From a virus (taxonomy: Duplodnaviria; Caudoviricetes), in IMG/VR virus record IMGVR_UViG_3300005805_000060, positions 24,461-88,460 of that record: a stretch of 64,000 bases of DNA, one strand, 5' to 3'. The translations under genes were made by a program, and so were the position numbers. Position 1 is the first letter of the stretch, and every line of letters starts with the position of its first letter. Positions 11,659 through 55,301 of the stretch are shown one piece after another. The notes below the pieces were generated by a model. That model was not told where the DNA came from and made no database searches. It was given only the letters and a program-made list of their open reading frames with translations.

Positions 11659-11705
11659 GATCTAAGAAATCATATTTACTCGAAACATAGCCTATAAATA
11701 TTTCT

Positions 11706-24397: not shown

Positions 24398-26104
24398 CTA
24401 GTTTGACAAAGCCAGTCGTTTTATTTTTGCCAGATCTTCCATGAAGCTGTCTGTTACTGCGCCGCGGTGGTCCATGGCATCAGTTGAGTCCTCGTTGGGG
24501 GCTTCAAAAGTGGCCAGATTGTCACCTTCGGACATGTCATTGTCTTGCTGCGGAAACCATCGAGAAATATCAGGGTCAGAATCATCCACTGCTACCAACC
24601 GGTATGGAGCAATATACCAGCCGCGGCCGTCCTGGTCCTCAATTCGCACTCGACGGTCTTCGGGATCACCCCTCATCACAAATATCTCGCCACGGTCGCC
24701 ATCTTCCTTGTCGCGGACATATGCACCACTGTAAAGGTCTGATTCATCCTCGTTGTACTCGTCATCGTAATCATTTTCTGCCACCTGTTTGGTATCCTGC
24801 TGTCCTGGCGCCGGCTGTTGTGTGGAATCCAATGGCAAAATCTGTTCAGGTTGTTCAGGTTGTGCGGGTTGTGCGGGTTGTGCTGGCTGTTCAGACAAGT
24901 CAATACCCAATTCGCTAGCGCGACCTCGGATAACATCTCGGGCATCGGCATCGGGATCTCGGTCGGCCAATGCAGACAGGCGATCAAACAGTTCATCATC
25001 GCCAAACAGATCATAAAGTTGTTCAGTGGCGTTGGTGGCATCTGGACCCACGGGCAGTTCTTGACTCATGAGTTCTTCGAGTTTTTTCTTGTTTTCGGGC
25101 GTGTCCGGAATAGACCAAGTTCCCTCGGCCAAGTCATTGATCCAACTCTCAAAAATTTCAGCTTCTTTCATGTTGGTTCCTTGTATGCGAGCCAGGAGAG
25201 GAAGTGCTTCTTCGATTCGTTGATCTAGAGATTGCTCCACAAACAAGGTCTTGAGATCTTCTACCAGGGCATCACTCTGAGCCGATTCATCAGCAGTCCA
25301 GGTTTCAAAATAGGCATGATATCCTCGAGCATGAGCCAGTGCTCGCAGATTCTCTCGGAGATTTTGATAGTATACATCGGCACTATTGACCACTTCTTGA
25401 GTGATTCCCTCTAGAACACGACCTTGGCTGGCTCTGCGGAAACGACTCAGTAGCTTGGCTTCTTGTATTAGGTTGGCAATATGCGAACCTCGGATGTCAT
25501 AAGGACGACCACCTTGGCGCACATGTTCCAGCATAGCTCGGCCGCCTGCAAGACTCACGAAAGGCAAACGGAAACGTTCCTGATCCGCAGTTTCGATAAA
25601 CAAAGCCGCAACGTGCCGATGTCGAGCATCGCCTTCGCCTAGAGGTCGACTGTGTCGTATCATGAGTCGGGCTTCAGTGGGCTTGCCCATGTAACTGACC
25701 TGGCGTGTACCGTAATAACTTTCAAACAGTCCCTCTCGGATGGCTGCCATGCCTGCCATGGTGTGCCTGAGTTGATTGATGTTGCGTGGACTGAACGTAT
25801 GGAAATCGTGTCGTGTAGAGAACTGTTTAAGTTGTTGCAGGAATCTGAACCACTCGTCTTTGTCCTGTTCCTCCATGCCTTTACCAAGATTGTCACCAAA
25901 GAAAAGCATGAGTTCACGATCATCAGTTATCACAGCTACCGCGGTACCATAATTGGTACCTGAACTGCTGACCCAGTCAAAGCTCATGACTCGTGCCTCA
26001 GCAGGTTGACTGGGTTTGCCCTGTTGATCAGTAGTTTCGGGGTCAAACCCTCGGGTAACCAGGAGATCGTAAAGATTTTGCGGTATATTTTGTTCTTTGG
26101 CCAT
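24398..26104 (-). CDS. Probable internal head/virion protein
   Basis: 568 aa, acidic, with a QPA/QPE repeat and many [ILVM]xE motifs. Ends LAKIKRLA. TAAATA lies 7 nt before the ATG. Confidence 0.5.
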   Translation of the reverse strand: MAKEQNIPQNLYDLLVTRGFDPETTDQQGKPSQPAEARVMSFDWVSSSGTNYGTAVAVITDDRELMLFFGDNLGKGMEEQDKDEWFRFLQQLKQFSTRHDFHTFSPRNINQLRHTMAGMAAIREGLFESYYGTRQVSYMGKPTEARLMIRHSRPLGEGDARHRHVAALFIETADQERFRLPFVSLAGGRAMLEHVRQGGRPYDIRGSHIANLIQEAKLLSRFRRASQGRVLEGITQEVVNSADVYYQNLRENLRALAHARGYHAYFETWTADESAQSDALVEDLKTLFVEQSLDQRIEEALPLLARIQGTNMKEAEIFESWINDLAEGTWSIPDTPENKKKLEELMSQELPVGPDATNATEQLYDLFGDDELFDRLSALADRDPDADARDVIRGRASELGIDLSEQPAQPAQPAQPEQPEQILPLDSTQQPAPGQQDTKQVAENDYDDEYNEDESDLYSGAYVRDKEDGDRGEIFVMRGDPEDRRVRIEDQDGRGWYIAPYRLVAVDDSDPDISRWFPQQDNDMSEGDNLATFEAPNEDSTDAMDHRGAVTDSFMEDLAKIKRLALSN

Positions 26105-26114
26105 AGTTTTCTAT

Positions 26115-28542
<2,428 letters not shown>

Positions 28543-51517: not shown

Positions 51518-51538
51518 CCGGCCCATAAATACTGCACT

Positions 51539-52912
51539 ATGCCCAGACTTTCGCTATATAGACCTAATCGCACCCGTGATTACCAGTATCTAGACCGCAT
51601 CATCAGTGAGAGGTACACCGTTGGTGGACTAGATGTATATTGCCACAAGTATCTAGGTCCCCAAACCGGGGGCGAGGACTCGGCCTTGAGCGGTAATGCT
51701 GATGCCACACAACCTGTGTACGAAACACAAAGTCCCTTGAACATCCAGGATCTGCTGCTGCTGGAAAATCGAGATCGTGTGTACGACCAAGACATCTATG
51801 TCATGCGCGGAGTCTACAATCAGCAAGACATTGACTTTGATCTCACGCAGTTTGGTCTATTTCTCAACAATGATACCCTGTTCATCACGTTTCACTTCAA
51901 TAACATGATTGACACATTTGGTCGCAAGCTCATGAGCGGTGACGTGCTAGAAATGCCCAATCTCCGAGACTACTATCCGCTCAACTCTGCCACTCCCGAA
52001 GCCTTGCCCAAGTATTACGTGATCCAAGATGCCAACTATGCCAGTGAGGGATTCAGCCAGACATGGTTACCCCATGTTTGGCGTGTGAAAGCTACACCAT
52101 TAACAAACGCCCAGGAATACAAGGACATACTCAAGAAGCCCATGGTCAACAGCACTATCTGGGACGCAGACAACTACTATCCCCAGGGCAGTGTGGTAAA
52201 CTACAACAATGTCTACTATCGGACTGTCAAAAACACCCCGGCAGATATTGACATTACCAATACTGAATACTGGACAGAATACACGCCGGGTACACAAAAC
52301 GAACTCATGACTACCCGAATCAAGGATCAAGAGATCAACAATGCCATACTCACGCAAGCCGATATAGAAGTACCGGCTTCGGGATATGACGTACAGAACT
52401 ACTACATCACAACCACACTAGAGAATGGCCGGCCGGCCAACCCTGATACATTAACCGCAGATTCAGCTACCACAGTAGACGGAACACAGGGCGGCATGAA
52501 CGTCACACCCCGGTCTGATGGATACACCGTGGGGTATCTTACCGGGGACGGTGTTCCGCCCAACGGGTTGCCCTGCGGAGTAGGTACCACGTTTCCGCTG
52601 GGATCAGTACCTGGAGATTTTTTTCTGCGATTGGATTATTTTCCCAATCGCCTGTTCCGTTTCAATGGTACTCGATGGATCCGTGTTGAGGACAAGGTAC
52701 AAACCAATCTCAACAACGGCAGCACCAATGACACCTTGCGCAGCACGTTTGTGAACAATACCTATACCACACCCACTACAGACCAGGGCAATATACCCAG
52801 TCGCCAGAGTCTCAGTGATGTTCTCCGACCGCGTGCCGACAATGGCAGTGAAGGTGGTTTCTTTCCAGCCAAGCCCTATCCCAACACTCAACCAGGCAGG
52901 AAATCAAGTTAA
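51539..52912 (+). CDS. Neck/head-closure protein (T4 gp14-like)
   Basis: DLLLLENRDR.YD, DL.QFG, GD..E.P, F...W...W. TAAATA lies 7 nt before the ATG. Confidence 0.7.
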   Translation: MPRLSLYRPNRTRDYQYLDRIISERYTVGGLDVYCHKYLGPQTGGEDSALSGNADATQPVYETQSPLNIQDLLLLENRDRVYDQDIYVMRGVYNQQDIDFDLTQFGLFLNNDTLFITFHFNNMIDTFGRKLMSGDVLEMPNLRDYYPLNSATPEALPKYYVIQDANYASEGFSQTWLPHVWRVKATPLTNAQEYKDILKKPMVNSTIWDADNYYPQGSVVNYNNVYYRTVKNTPADIDITNTEYWTEYTPGTQNELMTTRIKDQEINNAILTQADIEVPASGYDVQNYYITTTLENGRPANPDTLTADSATTVDGTQGGMNVTPRSDGYTVGYLTGDGVPPNGLPCGVGTTFPLGSVPGDFFLRLDYFPNRLFRFNGTRWIRVEDKVQTNLNNGSTNDTLRSTFVNNTYTTPTTDQGNIPSRQSLSDVLRPRADNGSEGGFFPAKPYPNTQPGRKSS

Positions 52913-52914
52913 TC

Positions 52915-52947
52915 ATGACACAGCAATTTTTTTATGATGAGTCATAA
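52915..52947 (+). pseudogene. Orphaned original 5' end of gp15 (MTQQFFYDES*)
   Basis: Matches IQSFFYDD at the start of the gp15 body after the endonuclease gene. Its stop is the TAA of a TAAATA element. Confidence 0.75.
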
Positions 52948-52955
52948 ATAAACAC

Positions 52956-53480
52956 ATGCATATATACAGAATTACTAATATCGTCAATAACAAAATGTAC
53001 ATTGGACAAACCATACAAAAAAATCCTAAGATGCGTTGGTATGATCATTGTGCTAGAACTAGAAATGGACAACACAATCATCTATACAATAGTATGAGAT
53101 TGTACGGCGTTGATAAGTTTGTTTGGGAAGTAATTGATTCGGCCACTAGTCTCGATGAATTGAATACTAAAGAACAATATTGGCTAGATGAGTATAGAAA
53201 AACTACCGAAGTTTATAATCTCAGAGAAGCCGGAAATAATAAAACTCATAGCGAGCAGTCTAAAGAAAAAATGAAAGAGTCTCAGAGACAGGCCCATGCT
53301 CGTAGACGAGCCAAAGGTACTGATACCTGGGTCCGTCGAGATGGCGGTGCTATGAAGGGGAAATCACACCCTAAAAAAGGTAAACCAAGTAAAAAATGGA
53401 GCGACGAAGCTAAAGCTCGATTATCATTGATTGTTAAAGAACGCGAAGCAAGAAAAAAACTTGCCGCCAGGGAGAATTAA
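52956..53480 (+). CDS. GIY-YIG homing endonuclease with NUMOD3-like tail
   Basis: HIYRITNIVNNKMYIGQT, R..H, E..W, YN, HSEQSKEKMKES. AT-rich. Confidence 0.9.
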   Translation: MHIYRITNIVNNKMYIGQTIQKNPKMRWYDHCARTRNGQHNHLYNSMRLYGVDKFVWEVIDSATSLDELNTKEQYWLDEYRKTTEVYNLREAGNNKTHSEQSKEKMKESQRQAHARRRAKGTDTWVRRDGGAMKGKSHPKKGKPSKKWSDEAKARLSLIVKEREARKKLAAREN

Positions 53481-53481
53481 A

Positions 53482-54891
53482 ATTCAAAGTTTTTTTTACG
53501 ACGATCAAATACGCCGTTTCCTCCTGCAATTCACCCGCGTTATTTCAGGATTCCAGGTTGAATACGGTCGAGACAGTGCAGACCCCAGCCGGATGGCCCT
53601 GTTGCGGGTTCCTGTACGCTATGGCGATGCTACTCGTAACGCCCAGACCATCATACAGGAAAACTCGGCCAACAACCTGCCCAGTACACCCTTGATGACA
53701 TTCTACATCAATGCTCTAGATTATGATCGTCCACGCATGCAAGAGCCTTACCATGTGAACAAGGTGTCTGTGCGACAGCGCACCTATGATTCTGCTACTG
53801 AAACCTATGAGACCACACAGGGCAATGCGTTTACAGTAGAACGTTTGATGCCGGTGCCTTACAAGTTAGGCATCACACTGGATATTTGGACGTCAAACAC
53901 CAATCAGAAATTTCAGCTGTTAGAGCAGATGCTGACTCTATTCAATCCCAGTCTGGAAGTACAGAGCACGGACAATTTTTTAGACTGGACCAGCCTCTCT
54001 GTGATCGAACTCGAAAGCACTCAGTGGACCAGTCGAACCATACCGCAAGGTACAGAAAATCCCATTGACATATCCACTCTAAGATTCAGTTTACCCATTT
54101 GGATATCTAGTCCAGCCAAGGTCAAAAAACTTGGAGTGGTAGAGCGCGTGATCATGAGCATGTACGATGCTCAAGGTGACTACAACGAAGCTATTAGCAA
54201 TAATGATCTCTTGTTGGGCACCCGTGTCATGATCACGCCTTGGAACTACAAACTACTAGTGATTGAAAACTGCATACAGATACTGTATGATCCTGCAATC
54301 ATACCCAACAGCGATCTAACCAACCTTGCACCTAACGAACTTGTGGCCGATAGTCCCTTGCTATGGCCCGCTGTGATTGGCGCCTATGGCACGCTGCGGC
54401 CAGGCATCAGCCAAATACGGCTTAACTGGCCAGTTGATGACCCCGACAATCAGATCGTGGGTACTATTGTGATTGATCCCAATGATAATCGCCTGGTAAT
54501 CTATAATGTGGATCCCGACACGGCCCCACAAAACACTCTACCAGCCATAAATGCCATTATTGATCCGTTAATCAGTGCTCCTGGCAATGGATTACCCCAA
54601 CCGGTCACAGGAGTCAGATATCTCCTAACCGAAAGCACTGGTAGCTGGGCCAACTCCTACAACCCCGAGGCCTGGCTGGGCAATCTAGATCAACCTTTGG
54701 TAGCACAGGCCAATGACATAATCGAGTGGGACGGTGTTCGATGGCGGGTAACATTTGTAGCAGCCGATGAAATCAGTACTCAATACGTGACCAACATAAC
54801 TACTGGTACACAGTATGAATGGACAGGTGAAATGTGGATGAAAAGTTACCAAGGGGTGTATCCCGGCGGCACGTGGAATCTAGTGTTGTAA
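53482..54891 (+). CDS. Tail terminator / sheath stabiliser (T4 gp15-like)
   Basis: FFYDDQIRRF, RVPVRYG, LPSTP, PVPY.L..LDIWT, LEQ.L.LFNP. Start uncertain: ATT 53482 with a GGAGA SD, or TTG 53431. Confidence 0.8.
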   Translation: MQSFFYDDQIRRFLLQFTRVISGFQVEYGRDSADPSRMALLRVPVRYGDATRNAQTIIQENSANNLPSTPLMTFYINALDYDRPRMQEPYHVNKVSVRQRTYDSATETYETTQGNAFTVERLMPVPYKLGITLDIWTSNTNQKFQLLEQMLTLFNPSLEVQSTDNFLDWTSLSVIELESTQWTSRTIPQGTENPIDISTLRFSLPIWISSPAKVKKLGVVERVIMSMYDAQGDYNEAISNNDLLLGTRVMITPWNYKLLVIENCIQILYDPAIIPNSDLTNLAPNELVADSPLLWPAVIGAYGTLRPGISQIRLNWPVDDPDNQIVGTIVIDPNDNRLVIYNVDPDTAPQNTLPAINAIIDPLISAPGNGLPQPVTGVRYLLTESTGSWANSYNPEAWLGNLDQPLVAQANDIIEWDGVRWRVTFVAADEISTQYVTNITTGTQYEWTGEMWMKSYQGVYPGGTWNLVL

Positions 54892-55301
54892 GAGCTGTGG
54901 GAGTGTGGTTCCGAGCACAGAGCACGAAACGATACCTTTATCTCATGCGCAACGACCACAAACACCCACAGGTATGGGGATTGCCTGGTGGCAAGATCGA
55001 AGAGGGCGAGACACTACTGGGCGGCATAGAACGAGAGTGCGTAGAGGAACTGGGGTTCATGCCCGAGTACATCCGATTGATGCCGCTTGATCGTTTCACT
55101 TCTGCGGATCAGATGTTTGAATACAATACCTGGATTTGTGTTGTGGCCGCTGAATTCCAACCAACACTAAATCACGAACATCTAGGCTATGCCTGGATTG
55201 ACAGCAACACATGGCCTAGACCCATGCATCCTGGCCTCTGGAGCGCAGTAAACTTTGAAGCCGTACAACAGAAGCTCAAGCTGATCGAAATTGGCACCTA
55301 G
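54834..55301 (+). CDS. Nudix hydrolase
   Basis: Nudix box GGKIEEGETLLGGIERECVEELG. Start uncertain. Confidence 0.85.
   Translation: MDEKLPRGVSRRHVESSVVRAVGVWFRAQSTKRYLYLMRNDHKHPQVWGLPGGKIEEGETLLGGIERECVEELGFMPEYIRLMPLDRFTSADQMFEYNTWICVVAAEFQPTLNHEHLGYAWIDSNTWPRPMHPGLWSAVNFEAVQQKLKLIEIGT

Follow-up and report, generated by a model that had tools for sequence, protein, structure and literature searches.

A GIY-YIG homing endonuclease cassette inside the 5' end of a T4-like phage gp15 gene and its probable replacement AUU start

Introduction

How can an essential phage gene continue to be expressed when a selfish gene occupies a place within its first codons? This question is raised by the gp15 gene, which encodes a homologue of the tail sheath stabiliser (tail terminator), in a stretch of 64,000 nucleotides (nt) from a tailed virus (IMG/VR record IMGVR_UViG_3300005805_000060, positions 24,461 to 88,460), referred to below as the window. 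In the window, the gene of a GIY-YIG endonuclease stands between a short copy of the beginning of gp15, complete with its ATG, and the body of gp15, which begins with ATT. A preliminary description, made from these letters only, had proposed that the endonuclease gene cut off the start of gp15 and supplied a recoded replacement, possibly with an AUU start. Comparing the locus with related viral contigs, we consider it likely, with a probability of roughly three in four, that a mobile cassette located inside the first dozen gp15 codons supplies a replacement Shine-Dalgarno (SD) sequence together with an AUU start.

Under this mechanism, the cassette would consist of three parts: (i) its own T4-type late promoter; (ii) an intact GIY-YIG gene; and (iii) a 3' end that doubles as the translation start of gp15, comprising a strong SD in the last endonuclease codons, an A-rich spacer of 6 nt, AUU, and a few initial codons of gp15. 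The resident ATG and the first nine codons of gp15 would stay upstream as a dead mini-open reading frame (mini-ORF), and gp15 would be made by initiation, probably re-initiation after termination of endonuclease translation, at AUU 53482, giving a product of normal length that begins fMet-Gln-Ser-Phe-Phe-Tyr. The cassette would spread by homing with very short co-conversion tracts, and upon later deletion of the endonuclease the SD+AUU module would have to remain, persisting as a scar.

The source of the window is an 88-kb viral record with an estimated completeness of 25%, and the phage is an uncultured, large, T4-like one. A phage collection was searched for near-identical genomes and yielded none, which leaves the window without a close cultured relative; the nearest cultured gp15 relatives, at 36% identity, are those of the Pseudomonas PA5oct group and Agrobacterium Atu_ph07. 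The comparison set included about 400 related viral contigs (loci labelled L, proteins labelled P). The gp15 locus set was formed by the 80 closest gp15 loci, and a search with an endonuclease alignment (A1) as the query returned 80 loci, of which the 26 closest were examined.

Results

The sequence statements on which the preliminary description was built, namely the mini-ORF MTQQFFYDES* before the endonuclease and the restart IQSFFYDDQIR after its stop, were all verified, as were the SD in the last endonuclease codons, 6 nt before the ATT, and the lack of a nearby in-frame ATG, the first of which is found 37 codons past the ATT. The leftover is a second copy of gp15 codons 1-9, and the restart reads ATT CAA AGT TTT TTT TAC GAC GAT CAA ATA CGC. 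The ATT lies one base past the endonuclease stop, with a spacer of 6 nt from GGGAGA, and the gp15 frame is open from TTG 53431 to 54891. Of the 534 nt of the insert, 525 nt (98%) belong to the ORF; the GC content is 0.36 over the endonuclease versus ~0.48-0.52 in the flanks. In nearly all related loci the same structural gene precedes gp15, and in endonuclease-free relatives its stop codon abuts the gp15 ATG.

Homologues begin with M(x)Q(Q/S/M)FFYD(E/D/A)QIRRF, and the succession of leftover, endonuclease and restart is present in many independent contigs; the duplication is therefore not a product of chance. The MTQQ of the leftover agrees with the closest endonuclease-free N-termini, MTQQFFYDD in P0005 and MTQM (MTQMFFYDE) in L002. 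This match to the window's own gp15 lineage bears out the earlier claim that the endonuclease sits inside the former 5' end of gp15. The layout behind the related claim, that the N-terminus was duplicated, recurs in many contigs; the SD+AUU module is not limited to the insertion in the window, being clade-wide and travelling with the cassette.

By domain and distribution, the element belongs among the Seg-like free-standing GIY-YIG homing endonucleases, and its gene is apparently intact. The protein aligns to the catalytic domain of I-TevI (1MK0/1LN0), with equivalents of the Tyr, YIG, Arg27, Glu75 and Asn90 all present; the conserved catalytic residues are invariant in 15 homologues, and the PHROG matches are homing endonucleases. 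The C-terminal half is basic and conserved among homologues, and a Pfam scan beyond residue 92, even at E<=5, gave no match for NUMOD or helix-turn-helix. The endonuclease is present in ~35 and absent in ~250 related loci, and it is 89% identical to that of L008, whereas the gp15 proteins of the two loci are 75% identical. In the L008 endonuclease (2960-2990), a run of eight A residues, versus seven in the window, shifts the C-terminus to ..KKTCR*, which may be a first step of endonuclease decay, with SD and ATT intact.

Among the 80 closest gp15 loci, four carry an endonuclease or a remnant: L008 (a mini-ORF MQQFFYAEP* and an endonuclease of 89% identity), L013 (54% identity, with an ATG-less leftover), L081 (59% identity, in an intergenic position and with a normal ATG), and L079 (a 27-amino-acid remnant). 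On the endonuclease side, 25 of the 26 closest homologues lie directly upstream of gp15, the exception being L344. The cassettes fall into two classes: (i) those with a gp15 leftover followed by (C/T)ATAAATA-N4-5-ATG (window, L008, L097 group, L110, L207, L319-L326, L329, L330); and (ii) those that replace the gp15 ATG right behind the upstream stop (L153, L135, L126, L161, L101, L152, L312, L081). Leftovers equivalent to that of the window are found in L008, the L097 group, L110, L207, L319, L322, L325, L329 and L330, and decayed ones in L013, L176 and L326. In nearly all loci the final endonuclease codons encode the gp15 SD (..KEN*, REN*, KES*, KENQN*, EASV*, ..EKTQ*); the ATG-type L081, with the C-terminus ..GEVI*, has at most a weak GGTGA.

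The restart of the window, ATT CAA AGT and the T-run, is common to L008 and the L097 group, although the gp15 bodies are just 72-75% identical, and the cassette-like sequence is confined to the first ~18 nt of the window gp15, with the sequence beyond the T-run L002-like throughout. Because the restart matches cassette-bearing loci and the rest is L002-like, the new 5' end appears to have come with the endonuclease in a co-conversion tract of ~18 nt. The crossovers in the window fall at the T-run on both sides.

Other junctions of this kind were also seen. ATG-type cassettes end with ..GGAGAA-N6-ATGAGT, the ATG overlapping the endonuclease stop TGA, and some endonuclease-free alleles (L017, L058, L074 and other 'MSQ..' alleles) have ATG AGT CAR behind an SD or extra spacer; the latter may be scars of the ATG-type cassette variant. 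In L033, L036, L048, L050 and L061, which belong to another gp15 lineage, a different insert occupies the same junction (~1242 nt from the upstream gene to gp15); it has an ORF starting MSLKELTADKHREAE.., and gp15 retains its ATG.

Several lines of comparison point to ATT 53482 as the start codon of gp15. A direct phmmer search of gp15 against the PDB gave no match, and a profile was required; the family profile aligns with the N-terminus of T4 gp15 (3J2M/4HUD; GYFYNSSFRRY) from residue 3 onward in both, and this alignment, together with the N-termini of homologues (MQSFFYDEQ..), puts the ATT in the place of Met1. The pattern of ATT, two codons and FFYDxQI(R) was found in more than 119 viral contigs, nearly all of them with GGAG or GGGGA 6-7 nt upstream. 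Across 58 distinct ATT alleles, GG(A/G)GA occupies positions -11 to -7 (71-93%) and A fills positions -3 to -1 (81-98%), with free variation at positions -5/-4 and in codons 2-3; the SD-ATT spacer measures 6-7 nt in 50 of the 71 distinct ATT alleles. When the SD and the FFYD codons were fixed and the start was left free, 50 contigs (29 distinct) were obtained with ATT in 29 of 29, and never ATG, ATC or ATA, even though the spacer and adjacent codons differed among them, a count that reflects shared descent of the module and hence not 29 independent trials.

In 47 of the 71 distinct ATT alleles, an in-frame stop upstream is followed by no ATG, GTG or TTG before the ATT, and in L013, L153, L333, L341, L342 and L343 the sole remaining starts are ATT, ATC or ATA. 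In most loci a single base separates the endonuclease stop from the ATT, or the two overlap (ATTAA). In sequence terms, gp15 thus probably initiates at AUU 53482, and the suggestion that it depends on this rare start gained support from an ATT that is conserved, placed at the proper distance from an SD and often without an alternative. In Escherichia coli, an AUU start with an SD gives an output a few-fold below that of AUG, and about twice as much when coupled to an upstream cistron (PMC3592434). The discriminating N-terminal peptides of gp15 would be (f)MQSFFYDDQIR for the AUU start versus PPGRIKIQSFFYDDQIR. A general habit of AUU initiation in this phage was considered and rejected, since a search of the window for other SD+ATT start candidates with a long ORF found none besides gp15.

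Variations of the start region occur elsewhere in the comparison set. In the 'IIQFFYDGQIRRY' gp15 group (L092, L101, L106, L129, L152, L186, L194-L196 and others), an SD GGAGG is found ~23 nt before the ATT, a conserved hairpin CGGU-UUAAC-(A/G)CCG, with 6-7 bp in the UACGG/CCGUA variants, is located between the two, and the stop TAA of the endonuclease or mini-ORF falls in the hairpin loop, in frame with gp15. This hairpin would bring the SD and the start together, in a layout analogous to the split ribosome-binding sites of T4 genes 25 and 38. Other non-AUG starts of gp15 are ATC in L213, L310 and L338, one ATC start being GGGAGATAATC-ATC directly behind the upstream stop; ATA in L343, a single near-cognate codon after an in-frame stop; and GTG in L216, L307 and L263, in the first two behind a weakened SD (GAAAGAACACAA).

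The association between the AUU module and the endonuclease was examined in endonuclease-free relatives, a comparison set as a check beforehand. Alleles of the ATG type lack an SD, the ATG abutting the upstream stop (TAA-N2-5-ATG; TAACACATG and similar). Non-AUG starts are found in 11 of 21 distinct endonuclease-bearing loci, versus ~3/76 and ~7/80 in the endonuclease-free samples. On a tree of 200 full-length gp15 bodies (N-terminus excluded; a sample partly enriched in ATT), independent pairs showed the endonuclease with ATT in five cases and the opposite in none, with three ties. The GGAGAA-N3-AA-ATT module is found behind at least six unrelated upstream-gene ends, each with ATG-type sister alleles.

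Scars of lost endonucleases were identified in several loci: L121 equals L176 minus the endonuclease, L125 retains the final 28 nt of the endonuclease ORF, L099/L117 have the leftover fused to the endonuclease tail in a mini-ORF MQQFHQEN*, and a mini-ORF MHIY..EASV* is present in the IIQFFYD group. L320/L321 have an SD+ATT allele as the leftover ahead of their endonuclease, which implies that scars get re-invaded and that ATT gives no protection from the cassette. We therefore rejected the idea of ATT as a change conferring immunity to the endonuclease, an ATT allele having been invaded at the same place. As to the presumed cleavage specificity, the earlier proposal that synonymous recoding removes the cut site is likewise unsupported: the restart retains the T-run, TAYGAY and CARATA, its differences lie within ordinary allelic variation, and L320/L321 were re-invaded.

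The alternative that survives best, which we nevertheless regard as unlikely, is that SD+AUU is an old gp15 allele type predating the endonuclease, which inserted upstream; the window would have received the allele by co-conversion, its endonuclease frame having run into the SD until a stop was reached, and AUU would be unrelated to the endonuclease. Endonuclease ORFs commonly run into pre-existing flanking sequence upon insertion, the L083, L088 and L098 groups show only the stop of the upstream gene, SD and ATT with no other remnant, and the ATT state is partly clustered on the gp15 tree (27 changes versus 48-55 in shuffles). Those 27 changes are, however, far too many for a point mutation always accompanied by the same 14-nt module, several endonuclease-free ATT alleles are demonstrable deletion scars, the module recurs behind the unrelated gene ends with ATG-type sisters, and the non-AUG fraction of 11/21 with the endonuclease stands against ~5-10% without it.

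A start at TTG 53458 (or 53431), which would add 8 (or 17) N-terminal residues (MPPGRIKIQS..) and make the ATT an internal Ile, appears improbable. The frame is indeed open from 53431, the database protein P0001 was called from 53458, and L008 and the L097 group retain the TTG. Both TTG codons lack an SD, however, and the one at 53458 arises incidentally from the endonuclease codons CTT GCC, being confined to one endonuclease lineage and absent from L013, L153, L135 and others; endonuclease lineages without it have no canonical start at all. An internal Ile would be expected to vary among ATT, ATC and ATA, at odds with its fixation in the distinct alleles, and the position of the N-terminus is conserved back to T4 gp15. 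The preliminary description had named a start at TTG 53431 as a finding that would overturn the AUU reading; this candidate was rejected, as an in-frame stop is found at this place in L008.

It is very improbable that a +1 frameshift at AAT-TAA, with the SD-like GGGAG as its stimulator, fuses the endonuclease to gp15, or that the leftover and the body are joined by splicing or bypass. In the window, L008 and L013, gp15 is read in the +1 frame with respect to the endonuclease, and the SD-like element ahead of the stop gives the site a superficial likeness to that of prfB, where such an element precedes the stop codon. Against this, the endonuclease-free ATT alleles have a different upstream ORF in varied frames (-14, -17, in-frame -18) and the hairpin group has its endonuclease in frame, so that no single recoding event fits all contexts; tRNA-Asn would presumably be unable to re-pair from AAU to AUU, and a 174-amino-acid extension on a conserved N-terminus is implausible.

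Joining could draw on the FFYD contained in both leftover and restart. A group I intron was rejected, because an Rfam scan of 52700-53800 at E<=10 gave no intron, the share of the ORF in the insert leaves no room for one, as the preliminary description had recognised, and the ATG-less leftovers of L013 and L176 exclude a usable exon 1. An intein does not fit, since stop codons flank the endonuclease, which is read in a different frame from gp15. Bypass of the T4 gene 60 type would have to span a gap of ~530 nt versus ~50 nt, ten times that of gene 60, and the upstream mini-ORF is decayed in several cassette lineages. Splicing and bypass, both named earlier as outcomes that would refute the restart, thus fail to fit; each requires the leftover ATG, which is lost in L013, L176 and L326.

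That the insertion killed gp15 and that the contig, a single metagenomic one with no canonical start at the proper position, represents a defective or transient variant is scarcely credible, given that the layout is found in dozens of contigs from many samples, gp15 in the cassette-bearing loci is full-length and conserved, with a mean column identity of 80%, no gp15 decay (frameshifts, stops) was seen among the 200 full-length bodies, and the protein cluster of the window has five members.

Some observations weigh against the replacement of the gp15 start by a cassette-borne AUU. About half of the endonuclease-bearing loci use ATG (usually ATGA over the endonuclease stop), and the cassette does not require AUU. 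Many endonuclease-free ATT alleles have no endonuclease trace beyond the SD-ATT module, which may have been either cassette-borne or pre-existing. Part of the allele sample was collected by an ATT-specific pattern, to which is added the common descent of the alleles with fixed ATT. In the window itself, two in-frame TTG codons (53431, 53458) stand upstream with no intervening stop, and an N-terminally extended product is possible for this contig. It should also be noted that initiation at AUU rests on sequence comparison.

With these points weighed, the cassette with its replacement AUU start remains the reading we favour, and a wider interpretation of it is offered tentatively, as something we rate a little short of an even chance. 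The cassette may have rewritten the gp15 start clade-wide, from an SD-less AUG coupled stop-to-start to a strong SD with an actively maintained AUU (29/29, with no single-base reversion to AUG), and the module would outlive the endonuclease as a heritable scar. The AUU could be kept either as a weak codon that offsets the strong SD, resulting in a low gp15 dosage, or by tying gp15 to the cassette tail and to termination-reinitiation, possibly with help from a state of infection in which leaderless late mRNAs are favoured as well. The first of these possibilities draws on the SD-less ATG alleles, on L216/L307 with GTG behind their weakened SD, and on the low copy number of gp15 in T4.

Transcription of the locus was considered through the late-promoter-like motifs. 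The motif CATAAATA occurs nine times in the window versus 1.66 expected, and 0 of 100 shuffles reach nine; exact TATAAATA is not enriched in the window (2 versus 0.9 expected). The sequence NATAAATA, which is the late promoter of T4-like cyanophages (PMC2984593), is found 4-7 nt before the ATG of six ORFs, at 11693(+), 28408(-), 34525(-), 41576(-), 51524(+) and 52943(+). No SD lies between (C/T)ATAAATA and the ATG in these six ORFs, of which the one at 28408 is a terL-associated endonuclease. Every leftover-bearing cassette conserves the arrangement (C/T)ATAAATA-N4-5-ATG, and in each of them the motif adjoins, with constant spacing, the gp15 leftover, which doubles as a homology arm. Since T4 late transcripts begin ~6 nt after the late-promoter box, the 5' end would fall at or beside the ATG, which suggests that the (C/T)ATAAATA genes, including the endonuclease, may give leaderless or near-leaderless late mRNAs.

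A scan for sigma-70 promoters and terminators gave nothing relevant above background, with no convincing terminator between the 51524 and 52943 promoters, and gp15 can be transcribed from both. Of the earlier claim that gp15 depends on the promoter of the parasite, the presence of a late-promoter motif in the cassette was upheld; sole dependence was not, as the 51524 motif lies upstream with no convincing terminator between.

Table 1. Features of the interrupted gp15 locus in the window
Feature	Coordinates	Strand	Remarks
T4-type late-promoter-like motif CATAAATA	51524..51531	+	7 nt before ATG of upstream structural gene
Upstream virion structural gene, 457 aa	51539..52912	+	phrog_11591, E 3e-76
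gp15 5' leftover, mini-ORF MTQQFFYDES* (10 codons)	52915..52947	+	TAA 52945-52947 falls inside cassette promoter
Cassette late-promoter-like motif CATAAATA	52943..52950	+	5 nt before endonuclease ATG
GIY-YIG endonuclease gene, 174 aa	52956..53480	+	Pfam PF01541, E 1.2e-10; stop TAA 53478-53480
TTG chosen by automatic gene callers (MPPGRIKIQSFFYD..), rival start, probably unused	53458..53460	+	P0001 begins here; no SD upstream
SD GGGAGA for gp15	53470..53475	+	within final endonuclease codons (..A R E N *)
gp15, tail sheath stabiliser / tail terminator homologue, 469 codons from ATT	53482..54891	+	Pfam PF16724 T4-gp15_tss, E 4e-24; phrog_11196/227

Discussion

The element shares several properties with SegA-G of T4-type phages and with intron-less homing in general (PMC2988022), including an I-TevI-like domain, a gene that is present or absent beside conserved genes, and co-conversion of flanks. 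As in the seg genes, signals for a downstream essential gene lie in the endonuclease ORF (promoters in segG, segA and segE; here an SD), and the embedding of host-gene signals in seg/mob genes works in favour of keeping the endonuclease (PMC2988022). Unlike Seg, the cassette lies inside the coding sequence of its target, with a replacement start (SD, AUU and first codons), a duplicated 5' leftover, and a promoter abutting the ATG. The intron-less and intein-less interruption of an essential ORF is also known from genes-in-pieces (mobE in Aeh1 nrdA; mobA in T4 gene 39/60; seg in phage 25 gene 43; PMC2988022); there, however, both fragments are translated and must reassemble, whereas here the 9-codon fragment would be redundant and a single full-length protein would be produced. 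The way in which the cassette sits inside an essential ORF differs from that of introns, inteins and genes-in-pieces.

The start itself resembles those of E. coli infC (IF3) and pcnB (PMC3592434), in which AUU and an SD are found a few bases behind the stop of the preceding cistron, and the weak start limits or regulates expression. In contrast to these genes, gp15 is a phage structural gene, its AUU module moves horizontally and in linkage with a selfish element, and an autoregulatory logic is not known. The position of the leftover, a copy of the presumed target against a late-promoter motif without length variation across cassette lineages, is reminiscent of the I-TevI autorepression operator (PMC2988022); the leftover is a candidate operator, although it is explained at least as well as a remnant and left homology arm. 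A candidate origin of the duplication is illegitimate double-strand-break repair, as in the acquisition of introns and endonucleases in T4 (cited in PMC2988022), where microhomology junctions can duplicate the flanking target. Searches of the available literature yielded no description of this arrangement, of an AUU-initiated gp15, or of leaderless mRNAs with TATAAATA.

If the proposed mechanism is correct, it would be a third route by which a homing endonuclease gene can reside inside an essential ORF, the cassette providing the interrupted gene with a spare start and its first codons. The locus would also provide a natural set of AUU-initiated genes, comprising over 70 distinct alleles along with ATC and ATA variants, that could serve as a comparative system for the stability of near-cognate starts; to our knowledge, the use of AUU as a start is otherwise documented for a handful of genes in bacteria. 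The scars indicate, moreover, that the expression signals of host genes can stay altered once the selfish element that changed them has been lost.

A practical consequence is that gene callers mis-annotate these gp15 genes, either by truncation or by extension to a TTG. The gp15 database entries P0001, P0009, P0027, P0033, P0038, P0043, P0053 and P0111 have truncated or TTG-extended N-termini, P0043 being called from an ATG 20 codons downstream, and they look like mis-calls from an ATT start. Downstream of gp15, a NUDIX/MutT-like ORF occupies 54834-55301 (+) and overlaps the end of gp15 if GTG 54834 is used; according to annotation, a NUDIX/MutT-like neighbour likewise follows gp15 in PA5oct-group phages.

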